A stretch of DNA of 35,731 nucleotides from a virus (IMGVR_UViG_2713896799_000024:1-35731), one strand, 5' to 3'. Shown: positions 7,117 to 35,731, counted from the first letter of the stretch. Numbers and translations are program-made. The notes: generated from the sequence alone by a model not told the origin.

Positions 7117-8451
7117 ATGTTTAGCTTAATCATGGCCGGAGAACCGGACGTTTTTGACCGCTGGCCGTGTATGGACCCTGAGCTTAAAGAAGGCAAGGAA
7201 AGCTTCTCGATGTCCCGCATGCTGGAAGGCACCCCAAGCAATATTTACAGAAAATTAACACCAATAAGACCCGATACCTTAAGAGTACTCGCCAAGCTAC
7301 CGGTGTTGTTCATGACCGAAATTTATACAAAAGATGATGAATATGATACAAACAAGTACATCAGGATCAGGCTTGGGGAAATAAGAAATTTACGTAAAGA
7401 TGGTGGCGATATTTTATTTTCTTTCAAGATTAATCATGATTTTGGAGAAATAACAAATCCCCAAACGACATTATATAAAGAAACCCTAGGACTAGGATCT
7501 TTCGGGTTAAGTCGTACACATTGGGCAGTAAAAAATAAGGATTTGAATATTGTTCTGGAATTACTTGGTTTAAACAAAAAAAATAGCCATCTGAAAGGTA
7601 CAATCAAATTAAAAAAACAAACATACCCAGTAGTCGAGAATATTATAGATTATCTTAATTTCATTAAGAAAAACTTTCGTGATGGTCTCATTACCTTCTA
7701 TCGTGGACACTCTAAAAGCTCATATGAGCTTGTCCCCTCTCTTTACAGAAAAAATCAAAACGGGACGTACAGGCATCTTGCTTCAGAATCTGATTTAGTA
7801 CGTGAAATACTCAGCGCAAGACCAAATGAATTTAAGGAGGATAAATTTACGATTGATAAACTTGTCCGCATGCAGCATTATGGCTTGCCTACAAGACTCT
7901 TAGACATTACATCTAACCCACTGATAGCATTATATTTTGCTTGCTGTTCGAACCCCGATGAAAACGGACAGGTGATTTCGTTTTCAACAAACAGAAAGAA
8001 AATTAAATATTTCGACTCAGACACAGTGAGCTGTATAGCAAACTTATCACTTTTATCTTACGAAGAGTTGGAAAAATTGTCTTCCATTGATGCCAGAAAA
8101 GGTAGTATGGAGTTACCTGAACTCACTGATAAACTTGCAGACCTTATACAGAATGAAAAATCATATTTCAGAAACAGAATAATCCCTGATGACTTAAAGA
8201 AAGTTGTTTTCCTTAAGGCAAAAATAAATAATGAACGCATACAATCTCAGGCAGGAGCTTTTCTTCTGTTCGGACTTGATCCCATTTTACCGGAAACAGA
8301 TGCTGAGTTTCCTCTTAACAGAGTGGAGATAGCGAACAAAAATAAAATTCTGGAAGAGCTGGCACAGCTTAATATATCCGAAAGCACTGTATATCCCAGC
8401 ATGGAGAAAACGGCAGCAGAAATTACAAAAAAGTTTTTATCGGTATCATAA
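7117..8451 (+). CDS. Cargo gene at the P2 Z/fun position: FRG-domain protein (444 aa), function unknown, candidate anti-phage/abortive-infection protein
   Basis: AGGAG RBS 6 nt upstream of ATG; translation contains ITFYRGHSKSSYELVPSLYR and RMQHYGLPTRLLDITSNPLIALYFAC, matching the FRG-domain signature (FYRG motif, QHYGLPTRLLD block); visibly AT-rich and on the opposite strand to the flanking late genes. Confidence 0.75.
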   Translation: MFSLIMAGEPDVFDRWPCMDPELKEGKESFSMSRMLEGTPSNIYRKLTPIRPDTLRVLAKLPVLFMTEIYTKDDEYDTNKYIRIRLGEIRNLRKDGGDILFSFKINHDFGEITNPQTTLYKETLGLGSFGLSRTHWAVKNKDLNIVLELLGLNKKNSHLKGTIKLKKQTYPVVENIIDYLNFIKKNFRDGLITFYRGHSKSSYELVPSLYRKNQNGTYRHLASESDLVREILSARPNEFKEDKFTIDKLVRMQHYGLPTRLLDITSNPLIALYFACCSNPDENGQVISFSTNRKKIKYFDSDTVSCIANLSLLSYEELEKLSSIDARKGSMELPELTDKLADLIQNEKSYFRNRIIPDDLKKVVFLKAKINNERIQSQAGAFLLFGLDPILPETDAEFPLNRVEIANKNKILEELAQLNISESTVYPSMEKTAAEITKKFLSVS

Positions 8452-9212: not shown

Positions 9213-9827
9213 TTACACCTGTGCGACGTTATACCATGTGCCATTGATGTATTTTTGTATTGGCCTGAATACTGCGGGGTCATCACCATCGACTTCACCG
9301 ACAATACCAAGCCCGGTAATTACGTGCCCTGCTTTCTCATACATCACCCCTTTCTGCATGGTCTGGACAACACGTGTGCCAAGTCTGATATCTCTCACAT
9401 AGCGGGAATCAAAGTTACCGTAATCCGAGGGATTAACACGCCCCGTAATATTTATGGTCTTATTACTTTGAATGCTTCCGGAAACAAAGCGCATAACATG
9501 GACGTTATTAGCATAAACATCCAGATTACCATCGCCATTTTGTTTAAATCCGGTGTCGTTATCACCAAGAACAATAGAGTTCCCACCCAACGCGTTATTC
9601 GTGCCAAGTGCCAGCCCGCCATCAATCCTGGCACCATTACCAACAGACACAACTCCTGTTCTTAAGTTGATGCCGAATGGCCTTAATGGCCCAATATCTC
9701 CATTTTCACCCTCATTTTCTCGTGTAGGAATGATATACAGGTTTTCTTCAGAACGGCGAAAAATAGCCCCAAAAGATGAATTAAATATCCTCAGTGCATT
9801 GACTGTAGATATTTTGCGTATTTTCAT
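9213..9827 (-). pseudogene. H: Tail fibre H, 3' fragment separated from the 5' part by an IS21-family insertion
   Basis: 204-aa ORF with G/N-rich beta-strand-like tail-fibre C-terminal sequence; its apparent ATG lies within the IS terminal repeat region and has no RBS; lengths of the two fragments (487+204) approximate intact P2 H. Confidence 0.75.
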
Positions 9828-10007
9828 GAAAGGAGATCACTCAATAACTTCCATCGAGATCGGGTAATAACATTTGAACAGATCGCTGAATAACATCGAT
9901 GGAGATCACTTTTGACTCATTTTGTTATTCAGTGATCTCCATCAATGTTATTGGAACTTCACAGGTGTGTTGATCTGTATCTTTTGCCATTCCGGTAAAG
10001 GATACCT

Positions 10008-11549
10008 ATGCCAACAGTTCCAATTTCTATGAGAAAACTTAAAGAAATTCTTAGGCTTAAATACGGTGTTGGACTCAGCCATCGACAAATTGGTCGTAGT
10101 CTTGCAATCTCCCCTTCCGTTGTATCCAGATATGCTAATCGGGCGGCTCAACTTGGCATAAAGCAGTGGCCCTTACCTACAGGATGGGATGATACAAAAC
10201 TAAAACATGCGTTCCTTCAGACCCAGGTTAAGATGAAGAAGCACTCTCTGCCTGACTGGGCTACAGTACACCGGGAACTGCGTAATAAATGCGTGACGCT
10301 GCAGCTACTCTGGGAAGAATACTGTGAGCGTAATCCAGGCGGTTTTTACAGCTATAACCATTACTGCCGGATGTACCGTGAATGGCTCAAAACCACTTCA
10401 CCATCAATGCGTCAGGTACATAAAGCTGGCGAAAAACTTTTCGTTGATTACTGTGGACCTACCGTTGGCGTTACCGACCCTGAGACCGGAGAAATAAGAA
10501 CTGCTCAGGTCATCGTAGCTGTTCTCGGGGCATCAAGTTACACATGGGCAGAGGCCACCTGGTCTCAGCAGCTTGAAGACTGGGTGATGAGTCATGTTCG
10601 CTGCTTCCAGTGGTTGGGTGGCGTTCCTGAACTTGTTGTTCCGGACAATCTGAAAAGCGCCACATCCAGGGCATGTAAGTATGATCCTGACGTTAACCCT
10701 ACCTACCAGCAGATGCTTGAGCATTATAATGTCGCAGTTTTGCCTGCGCGGCCACGTAAACCGAAAGATAAAGCCAAAGCTGAAGTTGGCGTTCAGGTTG
10801 TTGAACGCTGGATCATGGCCCGAATCAGGCATGAGATCTTCTACAGCCTTGCATCGCTTAATCAGCGCATTCGGGAGTTGCTGGAAAGACTGAATAACAA
10901 AATAATGCAGAAGTTGGGTTATTCACGTGCAGAACTCTTCATCCAGCTTGATAAACCCGCACTGAAGCCTCTTCCTGAAGCCAGTTACAGTTACACCCTG
11001 GTGAAGAAAGTCAGAGTTCATGCCGATTACCACGTGGAAATCGACAAACATTACTACTCGGTTCCATGTTCGCTGTTAGGCCAGCAACTGGAAGCATGGA
11101 TCTCCGGAGAACTGGTAAGACTCTTCAATCAGGGGCAGGAGGTTGCTGTGCACCCGCGCAAGCGTACTTATGGCTACAGTACCCGCAACGAGCACATGCC
11201 TGAAGCTCATCGACAGCATGCCACCTGGACGCCAGAGCGTCTTCTGGAATGGGCGGGGCACATAGGCAGTGAAACTCATAGTTATGTGCTTCATATACTG
11301 AACTCTCGTCCACATCCGGAACAAAGCTATCGCTTCTGCCTTGGACTCCTGAACCTTCATAAAAAATACAGTAAAGCCAGACTTAATGCAGCATGTGCAA
11401 GAGCTCTGAAAACAAAGGTATGGCGTCTGTCAGGTATTAAATCGATCCTGGAAAAAGGTCTGGATAAACAACCTGTTCAGGATCCAAAACCAGATCTGTT
11501 ATCCACGATGGAACACGAAAACGTACGCGGCAGTGAGTATTACCACTGA
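10008..11549 (+). CDS. istA: IS21-family transposase IstA
   Basis: 513-aa ORF with N-terminal HTH region (LSHRQIGRSLAISPSVVSRY) and central DDE integrase-like region characteristic of IstA. Confidence 0.85.
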   Translation: MPTVPISMRKLKEILRLKYGVGLSHRQIGRSLAISPSVVSRYANRAAQLGIKQWPLPTGWDDTKLKHAFLQTQVKMKKHSLPDWATVHRELRNKCVTLQLLWEEYCERNPGGFYSYNHYCRMYREWLKTTSPSMRQVHKAGEKLFVDYCGPTVGVTDPETGEIRTAQVIVAVLGASSYTWAEATWSQQLEDWVMSHVRCFQWLGGVPELVVPDNLKSATSRACKYDPDVNPTYQQMLEHYNVAVLPARPRKPKDKAKAEVGVQVVERWIMARIRHEIFYSLASLNQRIRELLERLNNKIMQKLGYSRAELFIQLDKPALKPLPEASYSYTLVKKVRVHADYHVEIDKHYYSVPCSLLGQQLEAWISGELVRLFNQGQEVAVHPRKRTYGYSTRNEHMPEAHRQHATWTPERLLEWAGHIGSETHSYVLHILNSRPHPEQSYRFCLGLLNLHKKYSKARLNAACARALKTKVWRLSGIKSILEKGLDKQPVQDPKPDLLSTMEHENVRGSEYYH

Positions 11550-11560
11550 TACGGGATCCA

Positions 11561-12310
11561 ATGATGAATCATCTTTACGAACAACTGACCGCACTTAAAC
11601 TCACCGGCTTCCGTGATGCGCTTAAAAAGCAACTTGCTCAGCCGGGCACATACCAGGAGCTGGGCTTCGAAGAACGCCTGTCATTACTGACAGCAGAAGA
11701 ACTAACCTGCCGTGAAAACAGGAAGGCAGAGCGTCTGATCAAACATGCACGGTTCAGACTTAATGCTGAGTTATCAAAGCTGGATTATCGTAACAATAGA
11801 GGGCTGGACAGGGCCCTCATCCGTTCACTCAGTCAGGGAAACTGGTTAACCCTGAAACAAAATATTTTACTGACCGGGGCCACCGGCAGCGGTAAAACGT
11901 TCCTGGCATGTGCACTTGGTCATAATGCCTGCCGACAGGGATACAAGGTCTACTATTATCGCCTTAAAGCGCTGATGGAACAGTGCTATCAGGGGCATGC
12001 TGATGGAAGATACAGCAAACTTTTGACCAGGCTGAATAATAGCGATCTGCTGCTTCTGGATGACTGGGGGCTGGAACCTCTCTCATCAGAACAGCGTAGC
12101 GACCTGCTGGAAATAGTGGATCTGATGTACCAACGAGGCTCAATCATCGTAGTGAGCCAGTTGCCGGTGGAAAACTGGTACAAAATGATCGGAGACTCCA
12201 CACATGCGGATGCCATCCTAGATCGACTGGTTCATGGCAGTATCAAGATCGAACTTAAAGGAGAATCAATGCGGAAAATACAATCTCCGTTGACCGAAGG
12301 AGATCAGTGA
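11561..12310 (+). CDS. istB: IS21-family helper ATPase IstB
   Basis: 249-aa ORF with Walker A LLTGATGSGKTFLA and Walker B LLLLDDWG; immediately downstream of istA. Confidence 0.88.
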   Translation: MMNHLYEQLTALKLTGFRDALKKQLAQPGTYQELGFEERLSLLTAEELTCRENRKAERLIKHARFRLNAELSKLDYRNNRGLDRALIRSLSQGNWLTLKQNILLTGATGSGKTFLACALGHNACRQGYKVYYYRLKALMEQCYQGHADGRYSKLLTRLNNSDLLLLDDWGLEPLSSEQRSDLLEIVDLMYQRGSIIVVSQLPVENWYKMIGDSTHADAILDRLVHGSIKIELKGESMRKIQSPLTEGDQ

Positions 12311-12380
12311 AGGTAATTTAAAAACGGTTCTGTGAAAGTGACACGAACCGATCTCCATCGATGTTACTCACCGATCTCCT

Positions 12381-13844
12381 TCACGGTAATACGCATATTT
12401 TTACTTCACTGCTGAAAAGGGCTTTAACAAGAACATACAGAGCATCCCATTTAAGATTCATCAGGTCTTTTGTTGTGGTGCTCTGGCGACTTCTCCATTT
12501 GAAATATTCATTGCCGTTGTCACCTGTTTCAAACCACATATATGAATCAGTATCGCTGTCGGCATCATTTTTAAATCCAATCTTTGCCCAGTCAGTATTT
12601 CGAATCCAGGCAAGGATTGAGTCGTTTTCAAAAGTAAGCCCACCGGACAAGGTATCGCCATTCTTTTGCACCGCGTTCCTGGCCCTGTTTACCGTTTCCT
12701 GCAAACCGAGGTATTCGATAACGGCAGTAACGGTCGCTTTGGCAAGAATATCCCGTCCGACTTTTGTCAGGGTTGCCAGGCTGGCAACATCATTCCCCGT
12801 AAAATACGGAAACCTGTCTGCCGCAGTAGCAAGCCCCGCCAGCGCCGTCAGGGTAGCATCTTTCGGTTGCTTACCCGCAAGCGCATTAGTCATGGTGGTA
12901 GCAAAATTCGGGTCATTGCCCAGCGCCGCCGCCAGCTCGTTCAGCGTATTCAGTGCGTCAGGCGACGAGTCTACAAGGGCGGCAATCGCGGCCATAACGA
13001 AAGCCGTGTTTGCGATCTGAGTATTATTCGTTCCCTGTCGCGCAGTTGGCGTCGTTGGCGTTCCGGTCAGTGCAGGGCTGTTTAATGGCGCTTTTTTGTT
13101 CGTTTCATCCATTACCGTCTTAACGGCTTTTGGTGTTGCGGCGAGCGTTTCAGACGTGCTGTTGGTGGCACTACTGAGCTGGACAAGGCCTTTTCGCGCT
13201 GTGGTGGCGTCCTGTGCGGTATATTTCCCGTTAGCCAGGTCATACGCGGCCTTTACCGCTTTCGGCGTTGCGGCCAGTGTTTCAGACGTGCTGTTGGTCG
13301 CACTGCTTAACTGAGTAAAACCTTTTGCGGTCAGCGAGGCGTCCGGGTGACGTCGTGACTGTTCGTGCTCTGCAATTTTGTCATCAACGTAATCTTGCGT
13401 CGCCATCACCGTTGTGGTGTCAATGGTCAGCTCCACTGAGGCCACACTGCTGACGATGATGACCATGCGGCAGGTCTGCGAACGCCCTGAGCCTTCGGCA
13501 AGGGCAGGTTTATAACTTTCGGCCATGTTCGCCACGGCAATTAACGTTCCCGCATCATCGTACAGGCCAAGCTCCCGCATCCAGAAACCGCCCACCTCCG
13601 GCGGAATAATCAGCTCTGCGATAATATAATTACTGTTTCGTTTGTCCTGGCTGATTTTATTCAGCGCATGTCGCCAGACTTCATGGATAAGCCCGGTCTG
13701 TCCGGCATCCGGGACAGGCAATTTACCACCGCCATCCCCGACGGCCATCGTGGTAATGTTGACCTTTCGCCCTCCCGGCGCGGTTGCCGCTGCCAGCTTT
13801 GCTGCACCGGCAGTGGTGATAACGGTTTTGAATTTTGTGCTCAT
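12381..13844 (-). pseudogene. H: Tail fibre H, 5' fragment; reading frame runs into the IS21-family element and terminates
   Basis: 487-aa ORF starting MSTKFKTVITTAGAAKLAAA (P2 gpH N-terminus); last residues (KICVLP-stop) are encoded by the IS terminal repeat. Confidence 0.85.
13119..13330 (-). repeat. Tandem duplication inside H (two ~80-bp homologous units, period 132 bp), encoding repeated QLSSATNSTSETLAATPKAVK
   Basis: Near-identical nucleotide blocks at ~13119-13198 and ~13251-13330; the repeat is visible in the protein and in the antisense ORF 13096-13314. Confidence 0.8.
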
Positions 13845-16352: not shown

Positions 16353-17879
16353 TTATTCCTCATTCTCTTTTCCATTTAAGAGCATTCTTTTTTCACATAT
16401 TTTTTCAACAAGCAAGTTTGCAAATGTATCTAGCTGTGCGTATATATCCTCACTAGGATTTATGGTAAAACCTCCAATGCCATTGGCAGTATCAAACATG
16501 CCAACAGGTGCATCACTATATCTTAAAGGAATAACACACCCATCACCAAATCTATCCCTAAATGTATCACCTTCAAATTTGCACCATATTCTAGTTGGAT
16601 AATCCCTACTCAAAAACGGAATTACAAAAACAGACTCACTCCTATAAATTGGAGCAAGATATTGTTCTACATCTTCAGAAAGTATTCTGGCCTGCTCATT
16701 GAAATCATAAAAAACAGATAACTCATTCTCAATCAGCTTTTGATTTAAATATTCCGCATGATTTCTATTAGCTCCAGCAAATGATAAAGCAAAGTCATAT
16801 TTCGACTTAAACTCAAATGATGTGAACCCTATCTTCTCCGCAAGCTTGCTCCATAACAAATTCTTTATATAATAATAAAACTTGGGATCTTCGATTGAAA
16901 TCTCCGTAGTTTCATCATTATAATGAATAACATCCGAAAAATCAGGATTGCTCTCATAATGCGTTTTTAAATGGCCTCGCGTCAGAATTTGCCCAACGCT
17001 ATTACGATGATTAGGATTGTTAATTAAATAACTTGTCAAATTTAAAGAACGCTCATCTTCTTTAGATAACCAATATAAAACGTGGAGATATGGAGCTCTA
17101 CTACCCTTTTTAACCCGCTGGCCTTTCACAAAGCGAACGACTATATCATTGAATCTATAGCTAAGATCCTGAATCACTGTTTCTTTAAGTGATTCATAGC
17201 TAATATTTGTTTCCCGAGGAGATTCTAACTCTTCTGTGATATCAGCCTGTAAACAAGCATTATAAGCCAACATTTGCGCCAGATGAAATGCCCCATCCGA
17301 GTCCTTTACAATATCTTCTTTTACATTTAGTTTGAAATTAAGCGCATTCTCACCTTTTTCTAGCAACTCCCTGACCTTATATTCCGGATTGGACTCAAAT
17401 TTAACAATGGAGATTCGATTTAGTAAATCCGGTGATAAATCAATCAGTGATTTGCCTGTTTTATTTATACCTATAATAATCAACTTAGAATCTAAGGGTT
17501 GTTCATCCGCTAAATTTTTCAGCAAGTCAGATATTTTATGCTTCAACTCATCATCTAACTTATGAAAATCATCAATAATCACCCCACCGAAACCACTCGT
17601 TGTTATTATATTTTCAATCTGGGCTTTATCTTCCTTTTTCCTTCCAGACAATACTTTAAACTCTTTAATTATCCGACTACTGGTCTCGAATTTTAACTTT
17701 TCAATAACCTGTCTTACGCAAGTCGTCTTCCCTATACCTGATGGCCCTTCAATAATTACCCCTCTTCCCGCTGTTCTTATCGACACATAGAGGTGTTTAT
17801 ACTCGTTAGGTTCAACAAAAGTAATTGTCGGGATACCCGAAAGTTTAAAGACATCTTCTAAATACACTGGTTCGCGCAT
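16353..17879 (-). CDS. Cargo gene between S and V: P-loop NTPase (N-terminal) fused to TIR domain (C-terminal), 508 aa; candidate single-gene anti-phage defence protein
   Basis: Walker A GPSGIGKTT, Walker B GGVIIDDFHKLD; C-terminal YDFALSFAGANRNHAEYL...SVFYD...SVFVIPFLSRDYPTRIWCKFEG matches the TIR fold signature, including the WC..E glutamate that is catalytic in TIR NADases. AAGGGA RBS before ATG; visibly AT-rich. Confidence 0.8.
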   Translation of the reverse strand: MREPVYLEDVFKLSGIPTITFVEPNEYKHLYVSIRTAGRGVIIEGPSGIGKTTCVRQVIEKLKFETSSRIIKEFKVLSGRKKEDKAQIENIITTSGFGGVIIDDFHKLDDELKHKISDLLKNLADEQPLDSKLIIIGINKTGKSLIDLSPDLLNRISIVKFESNPEYKVRELLEKGENALNFKLNVKEDIVKDSDGAFHLAQMLAYNACLQADITEELESPRETNISYESLKETVIQDLSYRFNDIVVRFVKGQRVKKGSRAPYLHVLYWLSKEDERSLNLTSYLINNPNHRNSVGQILTRGHLKTHYESNPDFSDVIHYNDETTEISIEDPKFYYYIKNLLWSKLAEKIGFTSFEFKSKYDFALSFAGANRNHAEYLNQKLIENELSVFYDFNEQARILSEDVEQYLAPIYRSESVFVIPFLSRDYPTRIWCKFEGDTFRDRFGDGCVIPLRYSDAPVGMFDTANGIGGFTINPSEDIYAQLDTFANLLVEKICEKRMLLNGKENEE

Positions 17880-27575: not shown

Positions 27576-28505
27576 TCAAACCAGGCTTTTGCCTTGCTTC
27601 ATTTTTTTAGATGAGTCTAAAAATTTGAAATTACCATTAGATGAAAATATTCTTTCTGCGGTATGCCGAATGACTGAAGTATTGAAGACCGCAGCCTGCT
27701 CCTCATTACAACTGAATACACCCTCATGACCATCAAACTCGCCCGCCAAAAGAAGGTTTTTTGATACTGGGAACAAAACTAAAGTGTCTTTTACACCAAA
27801 CCCGGGGGAATAAGGGCCTCGTGCTAATTCAGGATTAGTCCACATTAAGCAAACTGGGTTATCTGAAGTTATAAATGACCCTTGCCCATCAGATATGGTC
27901 ATAAGTGACCAGTTGCGTTGATGCAACAACTTGGTGATAACAGGTACACATTTCATTTCCATATCTATCATGAACTCTCTGATTACATTGATTTCGAAAT
28001 TATCCCCATCCACAAAATTTTTAATTTTTTCGTAAGCGAGATCATATGGCAAAGACTCACCCATTTCTTTCTCATAAGCTAATTTGCAATCGTCCCAACG
28101 CTCAGCCGAACTAACTGAGGATTTCATGATAAACTTTGCTATTTGTTTCAATGGAGATGATAAATGTTCTCGCTGAGCAGGCGTACGTATTGCCAATAAG
28201 GAAATAAACTCCAGAATAACATCTTTGGTTTCGCCTGAAAACTCGCCCCCCTCCTCAAGTTTTCTTAAATGAGTAGCGACACTGCCTTCAAACTCTGCAA
28301 GAGAACTCTCGAGATAGTTTGGGTCAACTCCATCCAATTCTAATCGGTTGAAATCTCTAACCCCCCCGACATTGCGAGTATTACTCTCAAAGGTTTTGCG
28401 CTCCTTTAAATCTATTACAGTTAATTTTGATTTTTTCCCCCCATTACTTGTAAACCCTTTCAAATAACATTGGGATAAAAAATGATGATGCCTTGCAACA
28501 CTCAT
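27576..28505 (-). CDS. Cargo gene at the P2 tin/old position: DUF4238-like protein (309 aa), candidate single-gene anti-phage protein
   Basis: Translation from MSVARHHHFLSQCYLKGFTSNGG... (HH-x-P/S-Q-x-YL-x-GF N-terminal signature of DUF4238); GGAG SD 7 nt upstream; visibly AT-rich; downstream of A on the same strand, where P2 carries tin/old. Confidence 0.7.
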   Translation of the reverse strand: MSVARHHHFLSQCYLKGFTSNGGKKSKLTVIDLKERKTFESNTRNVGGVRDFNRLELDGVDPNYLESSLAEFEGSVATHLRKLEEGGEFSGETKDVILEFISLLAIRTPAQREHLSSPLKQIAKFIMKSSVSSAERWDDCKLAYEKEMGESLPYDLAYEKIKNFVDGDNFEINVIREFMIDMEMKCVPVITKLLHQRNWSLMTISDGQGSFITSDNPVCLMWTNPELARGPYSPGFGVKDTLVLFPVSKNLLLAGEFDGHEGVFSCNEEQAAVFNTSVIRHTAERIFSSNGNFKFLDSSKKMKQGKSLV

Positions 28506-28608
28506 ACTCAGCTCCGTTATGGCTATAATCGCATAAATAATAAGCACTTATATTGCAATCATCTAGTTAAATACACAATATTTATGACTCCGAAATTTCA
28601 TTAAATCA

Positions 28609-31855: not shown

Positions 31856-32356
31856 TTAATGCAGATATTGCTCTGGTTTTACCGACGTCAGAATTGTCGG
31901 TGCATACTCAAACAGACTGAATAATTCACGTAACGCACGGAATAAAGCATCACGCCAGTAACATGACTCTTCATTAATTCGCCAGTATGGCTGGTTAAAT
32001 TCTTTTTCAGTCAATCCGGCATGCATAAATAAAGTACGGCGCTGACTGACTGTTAAAAAACTAATATATGCATACTCACTTGCGCCAACCTGACGGCGTT
32101 TTGAGAATGCCCCACGCAATTCATCAATTGCACATACCAGTCGTTCACGTTCGACGTCGTTCATTTCTTCAAAACGCATCGTTGCGTGACGCTGTTTTAA
32201 CTGCGCATGGAAGCAAACCGTTAGCCGTTCACGTTCCATCATCTGATTATAATAATCGCATGTATCCTGCCAGCGAGGGACGGCCAGATGCTTACCAATT
32301 ATCCGGCGCATAGCTGCTGGCTGTTTTTCAACAAGATTGAGCGTCATCACTGTCAT
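31856..32356 (-). CDS. B: Replication protein B (helicase-loader-like)
   Basis: 166-aa ORF MTVMTLNLVEKQPAAMRRIIGKHLAVPRW..., same length as P2 gpB. Confidence 0.88.
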   Translation of the reverse strand: MTVMTLNLVEKQPAAMRRIIGKHLAVPRWQDTCDYYNQMMERERLTVCFHAQLKQRHATMRFEEMNDVERERLVCAIDELRGAFSKRRQVGASEYAYISFLTVSQRRTLFMHAGLTEKEFNQPYWRINEESCYWRDALFRALRELFSLFEYAPTILTSVKPEQYLH

Positions 32357-32613
32357 TTCCAGACCCTCCGGCTTTTCAGAAAGGTCAGAGCCTTCTTTAA
32401 CGGACTCTGTTTTTTGGTGCGGATAATGATTCCCTTACGCCCCTTACCGTGGGTAATGGTGAAGTCAATCGCCCTTGGGCTTTCGTTACGCAATAACTGA
32501 GCAATACAACGAGGCTCGTTCATCCTTTCCACCTTAAGCCGCACGGCCATGTCTTGATTTGCTGTAACTAATGCGATTTTTCCAGTCATGCCATTCTGTC
32601 GGAGCTTCATCAA
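32353..32613 (-). CDS. Small ORF between cox and B (P2 orf78 position); start uncertain
   Basis: 86-aa ORF with several candidate starts and no clear SD; kept only because of position. Confidence 0.35.
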   Translation of the reverse strand: MMKLRQNGMTGKIALVTANQDMAVRLKVERMNEPRCIAQLLRNESPRAIDFTITHGKGRKGIIIRTKKQSPLKKALTFLKSRRVWK

Positions 32614-32994: not shown

Positions 32995-33306
32995 ATGTCA
33001 AATACACAAATCACATCTCAAGCAGAGAAACTCGCACTTATTCGGGAATCAGAAAGAATGACAAGGAAGCAAGTTGCTGAATTAACTGGAATTAACTACA
33101 ACACCTATGCTGGATATGAGCAGGGAAAAGTAAAGATGTCTTTTGACGCAGGTATGAAATTTTTCAAGCCAGAAAGATTTCGCAAGTACCGTGACTGGTT
33201 CATGTTTGATGAAACTGATCCCGCTGGCGGACAAATAGCCCCGGCGCTCGCGCACATTGGGCAAGACTCAACAACCTTGCACCACTCAGACCAAAAGACT
33301 GGCTGA
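32995..33306 (+). CDS. C: Immunity repressor C (HTH)
   Basis: Translation from MSNTQITSQAEKLALIRESERMTRKQVAELTGINYNTYAGYEQGK...; C-terminus ...GQIAPALAHIGQDSTTLHHSDQKTG is P2 C-like; divergent from cox. Confidence 0.88.
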   Translation: MSNTQITSQAEKLALIRESERMTRKQVAELTGINYNTYAGYEQGKVKMSFDAGMKFFKPERFRKYRDWFMFDETDPAGGQIAPALAHIGQDSTTLHHSDQKTG

Positions 33307-33399
33307 CGATTTATTCAGCATATGTGTGCAGTAAATGTACGAAAGAAAATTGCATTAATTTTCAAGTAGTAGAAGTAAACAGCGTCATCGGAGGGCTTT

Positions 33400-33537
33400 A
33401 TGTCTATTAAAAAGCTCGATGATGGTCGTTATGAAGTGGACGTCAGACCGCAGGGTGCAGATGGAAAACGTATCAGGCGGAAATTTAAAACTAAAGGTGA
33501 AGCTCAAGCATTCGAACGTCATGTGCTGGTTAACTAC
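33400..33537 (+). pseudogene. int: Integrase, 5' fragment (46 codons) truncated by IS2 insertion
   Basis: GGAGGG RBS then MSIKKLDDGRYEVDVRPQGADGKRIRRKFKTKGEAQAFERHVLVNY, terminated by the TAG that forms the first 3 nt of IS2. Confidence 0.9.
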
Positions 33538-33628
33538 TAGACTGGCCCCCTGAATCTCCAGACAACCAGTATCACTTAAATAAGTGATAGTCTTAATACT
33601 AGTTTTTAGACTAGTCATTGGAGAACAG

Positions 33629-33994
33629 ATGATTGATGTCTTAGGGCCGGAGAAACGCAGACGGCGTACCACACAGGAAAAGATCGCAATTGTTCAGCAG
33701 AGCTTTGAACCGGGGATGACGGTCTCCCTCGTTGCCCGGCAACATGGTGTAGCAGCCAGCCAGTTATTTCTCTGGCGTAAGCAATACCAGGAAGGAAGTC
33801 TTACTGCTGTCGCCGCCGGAGAACAGGTTGTTCCTGCCTCTGAACTTGCTGCCGCCATGAAGCAGATTAAAGAACTCCAGCGCCTGCTCGGCAAGAAAAC
33901 GATGGAAAATGAACTCCTCAAAGAAGCCGTTGAATATGGACGGGCAAAAAAGTGGATAGCGCACGCGCCCTTATTGCCCGGGGATGGGGAGTAA
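33629..33994 (+). CDS. insC: IS2 transposase OrfA (InsC)
   Basis: Translation [41 protein letters not shown]... (121 aa). Confidence 0.92.
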
Positions 33995-34857
33995 GCTTAG
34001 TCAGCCGTTGTCTCCGGGTGTCGCGTGCGCAGTTGCACGTCATTCTCAGACGAACCGATGACTGGATGGATGGCCGCCGCAGTCGTCACACTGATGATAC
34101 GGATGTGCTTCTCCGTATACACCATGTTATCGGAGAGCTGCCCACGTATGGTTATCGTCGGGTATGGGCGCTGCTTCGCAGACAGGCAGAACTTGATGGT
34201 ATGCCTGCGATCAATGCCAAACGTGTTTACCGGATCATGCGCCAGAATGCGCTGTTGCTTGAGCGAAAACCTGCTGTACCGCCATCGAAACGGGCACATA
34301 CAGGCAGAGTGGCCGTGAAAGAAAGCAATCAGCGATGGTGCTCTGACGGGTTCGAGTTCTGCTGTGATAACGGAGAGAGACTGCGTGTCACGTTCGCGCT
34401 GGACTGCTGTGATCGTGAGGCACTGCACTGGGCGGTCACTACCGGCGGCTTCAACAGTGAAACAGTACAGGACGTCATGCTGGGAGCGGTGGAACGCCGC
34501 TTCGGCAACGATCTTCCGTCGTCTCCAGTGGAGTGGCTGACGGATAATGGTTCATGCTACCGGGCTAATGAAACACGCCAGTTCGCCCGGATGTTGGGAC
34601 TTGAACCGAAGAACACGGCGGTGCGGAGTCCGGAGAGTAACGGAATAGCAGAGAGCTTCGTGAAAACGATAAAGCGTGACTACATCAGTATCATGCCCAA
34701 ACCAGACGGGTTAACGGCAGCAAAGAACCTTGCAGAGGCGTTCGAGCATTATAACGAATGGCATCCGCATAGTGCGCTGGGTTATCGCTCGCCACGGGAA
34801 TATCTGCGGCAGCGGGCTTGTAATGGGTTAAGTGATAACAGATGTCTGGAAATATAG
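33952..34857 (+). CDS. insD: IS2 transposase OrfB (InsD), expressed as an OrfAB fusion by -1 frameshift at AAAAAAG (33946-33952)
   Basis: 301-aa DDE-transposase ORF overlapping insC; slippery heptamer A6G sits at the overlap. Confidence 0.9.
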
Positions 34858-34868
34858 GGGCAAATCCA

Positions 34869-35731
34869 ACTACCACAACAAAGAGTGGCTGGAGAAGCCA
34901 GCCGACCGCCGAACTCTTACAGAGTTGTTAGGCAGATGGTGGATATATCACGGAAAATCACATGAGCGTGGAAATATTGAACGGGGGCGTTTGACGACAA
35001 TAATCGCCAAATTTGCAGAAATGGGAGTGTCCAGAGCTGACCAGTTAACAAAGAAAACGATAACTGATTATCGAGTTGTAATGATGAACGATGGTCTAAA
35101 ACCAGCCAGCGTAAATCGGCATCTGGCAATAATGAGCGGGATGTTCACCAAGTTAATTGACGCCGGTGAATACCACTCTCACAACCCGTTCCGTGAGGTT
35201 AAGCGGTTACGTGAAGCTGTTACAGAAATGGCTTTTTTGTCCAGTGAAGAGATTACGCGGCTGTTATCCATGCTTGATGGTGATGAGTTAAATGCAACTC
35301 TGGTCTGCCTTTCTACTGGTGGACGCTGGAGTGAAGTGTCTAATTTGAAAGCTGAACACATCATTAACCAGATGGTTACGTTTATGAAAACTAAAAACGG
35401 AAAGCGCAGGACAATTCCCGTTTCGCAGGACCTGATTAAAAGGATCAAGACCAAAAATTCAGGCAGGCTTTTTAATGCCAGTTACTACAAAGTGCGTAAC
35501 GCTCTCAGGGAAGTAAAACCCGATTTACCTGACGGACAAGCAGTACATGTTTTGAGGCATACATTTGCCACACATTTTATAATGAATGGAGGTAACATAA
35601 TCACATTGCAGCGCATCCTGGGTCATTCTAACATTCAGCAAACTATGACCTACGCACACTTTGCACCGGATTTCTTACAAGATGCTGTGACTCTTAACCC
35701 GGTGTCAGGAATGTCCATAATGCGTCCATAA
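34869..35731 (+). pseudogene. int: Integrase, 3' fragment (tyrosine recombinase catalytic domain), separated from its 5' end by IS2
   Basis: In-frame continuation YHNKEWLEKPADRR... through HxxR and the catalytic-Tyr region (LGHSNIQQTMTYAHF); stop at the last base of the window. Confidence 0.9.

Follow-up and report, generated by a model that had tools for sequence, protein, structure and literature searches.

A P2-like prophage with int split by IS2 and with intact repressor and cargo genes

The integrase gene of a P2-like prophage is split by a complete copy of IS2. The account that fits best, with a probability of roughly 0.85, is the early and ordinary inactivation of a prophage by an insertion sequence (IS), in which int::IS2 ends self-excision and leaves the repressor and the cargo genes intact. 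Inactivation of prophage genes by IS elements is a familiar route to cryptic prophages, and the event is of an already known, ordinary kind, with no departure from known classes. As in other cryptic prophages inactivated by IS elements, recombination and structural genes have been hit while immunity and accessory genes have been spared; unlike those, this prophage is at an early stage, with two clean, reversible-looking insertions and no deletions, frameshifts or point-mutation decay. The IS2 event would be recent and one of at least two IS hits, the other being ISEc12 in the tail-fibre gene H. Immunity and any defence benefit would be kept, because the repressor and three cargo genes are intact, and repressor and cargo would continue to be expressed.

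The window (the whole stretch of 35,731 nucleotides that was analysed) comprises an entire P2-like (Peduovirus) prophage, running from the stop codon of ogr at position 1 to that of int at position 35731. Over its first 25 kb it aligns to pro147, P2 and Wphi at 96-97% identity with 74-76% coverage, and over its last 10.7 kb to pro483 at 97.6% identity with 85% coverage. The Peduovirus gene order (ogr-D...FI, G-H...V, S...L, M-N-O / P-Q, A...B, cox / C-int) is preserved. Gene integrity was judged by ORF length against the P2 annotation, and by this measure all P2 genes are full length apart from the two hit by IS elements, H and int; lengths equal to those of P2 were found for D (387), U (159), T (815), FII (172), FI (396), G (175), I (176), J (302), W (115), R (155), K (165), M (247), N (357), Q (344), B (166), and so on. 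A truncation of the replication gene A (723 aa vs 761 aa in P2) was considered and rejected, since the gene has the same length in pro483. The immunity repressor gene C (32995-33306, + strand), first gene of the C-int operon, is intact and corresponds to the 312-nt helix-turn-helix gene of strain ABWA45; int follows it, as in P2. The closest described relatives, pro483 and pro147 of E. coli DE048, share a backbone about 97-98% identical and the same type of int, and pro483 resembles the window further in its DUF4238 gene between A and Q and in its replacement of the pflA 5' end up to the att core. Both differ from it in having an uninterrupted int (996 nt in the pro483 annotation), and the stretch of pro483 compared shows no IS.

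The interrupting element occupies positions 33538-34868 on the + strand, with its transposase genes oriented the same way as int. It is a complete IS2 (IS3 family) of 1331 bp, beginning with TAGACTGGCCCC and ending with GGGGCAAATCCA. With IS2-annotated elements in RefSeq E. coli genomes as the identity reference, it agrees from end to end (100% identity and coverage) with copies that many E. coli genomes label "IS3-like element IS2 family transposase", and copies at least 99% identical to it were found in 2871 records when 5,426 complete E. coli genomes were searched. The original prediction of a complete 1331-bp IS2 is thereby borne out over the whole length, with no substantial difference from the known element. 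The left inverted repeat (IRL, about 42 bp, 33538-33579, + strand) opens with the TAG that serves as the in-frame stop of int, and the right one (IRR, about 41 bp, 34828-34868, + strand) was assigned from the inverted-repeat match and the published length; the imperfect terminal inverted repeats pair over arms at 33547-33579 and 34828-34860. Between them lie orfA (InsC, 121 aa, 33629-33994, + strand; Pfam HTH_Tnp_1) and the orfB frame (InsD, 33952-34857, + strand; HTH_21, rve and rve_3), which holds the DDE catalytic core. An A6G motif at 33946-33952 (+ strand) is the predicted slippery site for a programmed -1 frameshift yielding the OrfAB transposase, and the gene call at locus L006 gives a fused OrfAB product of 409 aa. 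The published description of IS2 has an IRL of 42 bp, an IRR of 41 bp, and orfA and orfB joined by an A6G -1 frameshift (PMC3299598). Every feature tested thus agrees with IS2 of E. coli, from length and terminal repeats through orfA/orfB with A6G and the DDE (rve) transposase to the 5-bp duplication and the identity itself; the insertion site alone differs, being found in none of the 5,426 complete E. coli genomes and on 11 contigs elsewhere.

The element is flanked by two copies of ACTAC, each 5 bp long, at 33533-33537 on the left and 34869-34873 on the right. Counted from the int start at 33400, codon 47 is the TAG at 33538-33540, so that the ORF (33400-33540) encodes 46 aa. Both of these points had been predicted, namely an insertion after codon 46 with the terminal TAG of IS2 acting as the stop codon, and a direct repeat pointing to simple transposition; re-inspection confirmed each, and the empty site strengthens the second. 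Strain ABWA45 carries an uninterrupted int with a single ACTAC at the same position. When IS2 is taken out of the window together with one ACTAC, the result is an int of 996 nt that is identical to the ABWA45 gene at 996 of 996 positions, and the whole non-IS sequence of 33000-35731 (1396 nt) has an exact match in the ABWA45 genome. A 5-bp match at both exact ends would arise by chance at a rate of 1/1024, a consideration made irrelevant by the existence of an empty site with a single ACTAC. Transposition in the IS3 family proceeds by copy-out, paste-in via a minicircle. An active-looking IS2 would have entered int at the boundary of codons 46 and 47, duplicating ACTAC and placing the TAG of its left end in frame with int.

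What would the insertion leave of Int? The 5' fragment (33400-33537, + strand), codons 1-46, encodes the N-terminal arm-binding domain and aligns to residues 1-46 of P2 Int. The 3' fragment (34874-35731, + strand), codons 47-331 and the stop, has lost its own start; its 285 codons cover the core-binding and catalytic domains and have neither a start codon nor a ribosome-binding site. The restored Int is a protein of 331 aa with Pfam domains Int_N (57-159) and Phage_integrase (167-310), and it is 53% identical to the Int of phage P2 over 326 residues, the N-terminal 46 residues being nearly identical, which upholds the identification of the interrupted gene as an integrase. It matches the PDB entries 5C6K (E 4e-88) and 5DOR (E 6e-58), both of whose sequences match P2 Int. 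The first residue of the 5C6K chain aligns to position 46, so IS2 sits where that construct begins, and because of this correspondence the truncated product is the N-terminal domain alone. Like P2 integrase, the restored protein has its domains in the order arm-binding, core-binding, catalytic, and its gene closes the C-int operon, beside att; the protein differs in its core-binding region and attachment site (the 5' end of pflA here, P2's own sites there), and the copy in the window differs again in being split by IS2. The catalytic and core-binding domains of P2-type integrases are present in the restored protein. The arm-binding domain, which such integrases carry on the same polypeptide, is joined to them in the intact allele and not in the window.

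The remnants would thus be a 46-aa arm-binding peptide and a promoterless, start-less downstream fragment. Excision of P2 requires Int, Cox and IHF. A P2-type Int would have to bridge arm and core sites to form the excision complex with Cox and IHF, and the prophage is very probably unable to excise by itself, judging from the integrase family to which Int belongs, because the arm-binding domain has been severed from the core-binding and catalytic domains. In P2-type integrases the N-terminal domain binds the arm sites of att, and point mutants in it are Int-defective (PMC3448106). One further ORF deserves attention here. A chimeric reading frame (34832-35731, + strand) begins with a GTG inside the IRR, continues through 12 IS2-derived codons and then reads Int 46-331; gene callers list it, at 299 aa, on 11 contigs, and it could in principle yield an arm-less Int. 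A simple scan for consensus promoters came up empty in and near the right end of IS2, and the promoter-like sites it did return lie only farther downstream, within the int fragment; a hybrid outward promoter at the right end of IS2 was discarded as a candidate on this result.

How widespread is the allele? A BLAST search with 240 nt spanning the junction found no record covering it among the 5,426 complete E. coli genomes, and the exact left-junction 40-mer was absent from the species-representative genome collection and from IMG/VR. An exact look-up of the right-junction ORF (34832-35731), in turn, returned 11 contigs, among them contigs of two ENA metagenome assemblies and of at least three NCBI assemblies (GCA_025988865.1, GCA_036679865.1 and GCA_005383905.1). 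Two of the 11 match the window at 100% identity across 2832 nt. The ogr and int stops of GCA_025988865.1 lie 35,731 bases apart, a span equal to the window, so the window probably derives from this genome or from one almost identical to it. The int::IS2 allele is real and has been inherited by a small group of strains.

Among the 5,426 complete E. coli genomes the 5' region of int is uninterrupted in about 393 and carries a different IS2 in one, PEC408; none has the insertion of the window. An IS2 hotspot, or recurrent selection, at the 5' end of int was considered and found unsupported, with one other interrupted copy among about 394 carriers. The PEC408 insertion (L002 3366-4698) is independent. 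It resembles that of the window in gene, element, orientation and position beside pflA, and in that the TAG of IS2 provides an immediate in-frame stop; it differs in lying after codon 11 instead of 46 and in its GTTAT duplication, and the 2.7-kb region around it is about 96% identical to the window. Strain 1217KP had appeared to be a second case of IS2 in int and was rejected, its int being intact and the IS2 adjoining ycaN. A classical IS2 insertion mutant of P2, sig5, belongs to the background of the subject; a literature search on it yielded nothing usable, and it is given no weight as evidence.

The second interruption lies in the tail-fibre gene. ISEc12 (IS21 family, 2581 bp, 9815-12395, + strand), 100% identical to ISEc12 and flanked by a TATTT duplication, carries istA (10008-11549) and istB (11561-12310) and splits H into fragments at 12396-13844 and 9213-9814 on the - strand. 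Removing it with one TATTT restores an H ORF of 681 aa, as long as the H genes of intact relatives (loci L014 and L018). The split in H probably blocks the formation of infectious particles independently, even after excision. The original prediction had drawn no connection between ISEc12 and the IS2 insertion. The two occur together in GCA_025988865.1, GCA_036679865.1, GCA_005383905.1 and ERZ27243482, and both are present in every assembly in which both loci could be examined. The pattern is one of IS accumulation in a prophage and not of a single targeted lock.

A third element, IS30, occupies the same site, between B and the small ORF that precedes cox, in GCA_036679865.1 (L007 2342-3493) and in ABWA45 (L001 1174-2325), and is absent from the window at about 32356-32360. 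The first of these genomes has int::IS2 and the second an intact int. The three IS30 states imply that the element inserted repeatedly at a hotspot, that the early module recombined, or that IS30 was lost.

All three variable loci of P2 (Z/fun, orf30 and old/tin) hold genes that match defence models, a predicted function. The Z/fun hotspot encodes an FRG-domain protein (7117-8451, + strand; Pfam FRG; PADLOC candidate PDC-S15, E 1.6e-98). The orf30 hotspot encodes an AAA ATPase with a C-terminal TIR (16353-17879, - strand), a weak match to PADLOC PDC-S59 (E 1.5e-19) whose Pfam TIR_2 score falls marginally under the curated cut-off. The old/tin hotspot, between A and Q, encodes a DUF4238 protein (27576-28547, - strand; PADLOC DUF4238-Pers, E 2.7e-219), and a DUF4238 protein from the old/tin hotspot of P2 confers strong resistance to T7 (PMC9122126). 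Has the prophage, as had been proposed, been domesticated and kept for this cargo? The evidence does not support it. Neither the int flanks nor IS2 carry substitutions, and the lytic genes other than H and int are full length; domestication would entail long vertical retention, decay of lytic functions and purifying selection on the cargo, and the sequence gives no sign of long retention or of selection. The original interpretation is accordingly supported in part. Since int and IS2 are identical to intact copies, the insertion is recent and there is no sign of long retention, and since disruption of int is rare (1 vs about 393) there is no sign of recurrent selection.

The window ends at the ogr and int stops and so excludes, on either side, the att site and roughly 100 bp belonging to the phage; statements about att integrity refer to the probable source genome. 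There the prophage lies between pflB and pflA, and both 13-bp att cores are intact. The core, GTCAGTTATTGGT, corresponds to codons 2-5 of host pflA (L006 6901-7004 on the attR side, L015 2750-2775 on the attL side, L005 9587-9689 in pro483). The phage supplies a new pflA start and 20 codons (MSNLTNCNTTENTATAGATK) fused in frame, giving a PflA of 265 aa in lysogens; the gene then begins 31 bp after int, 35 kb from its native upstream region, which stays at attL. Among P2-like prophages at this same pflA site there is strong mosaicism. In ABWA45, the C-int stretch is 100% identical to window 33000-35731 without IS2, while the cargo differs (an S8 peptidase and an AAA ATPase), the tail-fibre region is another one, with an invertase, and a tail gene is frameshifted.

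Several other readings were weighed against early inactivation by IS2. That the junction is an assembly artefact, a chimeric join at a repeated IS, is scarcely credible: misjoins in draft assemblies are frequently due to IS copies, but the duplication is perfect at both junctions, the empty site is exact, and the identical junction recurs in independent NCBI assemblies and in ENA metagenome assemblies. A far weightier possibility, given somewhat less than even odds, is that the prophage was already dead through H::ISEc12 and that IS2 came later, by chance, under relaxed selection. The joint presence of IS2 and ISEc12 wherever both loci could be examined speaks for it, and the additional IS30 in the early region of GCA_036679865.1 fits ongoing IS accumulation. 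The IS2 hit may then have no phenotypic consequence of its own. However, the chimeric int ORF on 11 contigs against a truncated H ORF on 6 hints, if anything, that IS2 came first, although these counts are unreliable because assemblies break at IS copies. Moreover, a knock-out of int abolishes excision mechanistically, whichever IS came first. Could excision nevertheless be kept, through a partly active chimeric Int or another P2-type integrase acting in trans? The chimeric ORF retains complete core-binding and catalytic domains and may make an arm-less Int with residual or regulatory activity, and neither att core (GTCAGTTATTGGT) is damaged in the probable source genome. Against this, the chimeric product lacks the arm-binding domain that P2-type integrases require, and its ORF starts at a GTG with no evident ribosome-binding site and, by the simple scan, no consensus promoter in or near the right end of IS2; we consider continued excision very unlikely. 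Because both att cores are intact, Int supplied in trans by a related phage could still free the prophage, and the lock-in is to that extent conditional.

A non-neutral hit by IS2, whether through selected immobilisation of a defence prophage or through altered expression of pflA, is on the whole a slender prospect. An adaptive lock-in, in which loss of Int was selected and fixed a prophage with three defence-type genes, is by itself unlikely. In its favour are the position of those genes at known P2 hotspots, with a hotspot DUF4238 protein acting experimentally against T7 (PMC9122126), the presence of int::IS2 in several assemblies and metagenomes, which indicates that it has persisted for some time, and the second, independent IS2 in the same gene in PEC408; domestication of defective elements with defence homologues has also been raised as an open question (PMC13586616). 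It is opposed by the absence of any substitution when IS2 and the disrupted int are compared with intact copies, by the lack of lytic-gene decay beyond the IS hits, and by the uninterrupted int 5' regions in about 393 complete genomes against one with an IS. P2 prophages are, besides, already highly stable without int mutations. Less probable still is a key effect on the host, with IS2 altering expression of a pflA whose 5' end is supplied by the phage. IS2 lies 0.9 kb upstream of pflA in the same orientation and might be polar on read-through into a gene that takes its start and 20 codons from the prophage and has its native upstream region 35 kb off at attL. But this argument is positional alone, and a promoter-like site that follows IS2 within the 3' end of int (L006 6863-6890) would make pflA independent of read-through.

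With early inactivation by IS2 as the preferred reading, the prophage is to be scored as defective, int and the tail-fibre gene H both being interrupted, and the insertion has little importance beyond annotation. Were the lock-in or the pflA reading true, it would be a small case of an IS stabilising defence-carrying prophages or rewiring a phage-controlled host gene. The exact junction is a handy lineage marker for strains that carry the allele. The disrupted gene also sets an annotation trap: gene callers report the 299-aa ORF that starts within IS2 as an integrase although its arm-binding domain is missing, and in PEC408 RefSeq likewise names a 333-aa ORF beginning inside IS2 "phage integrase".
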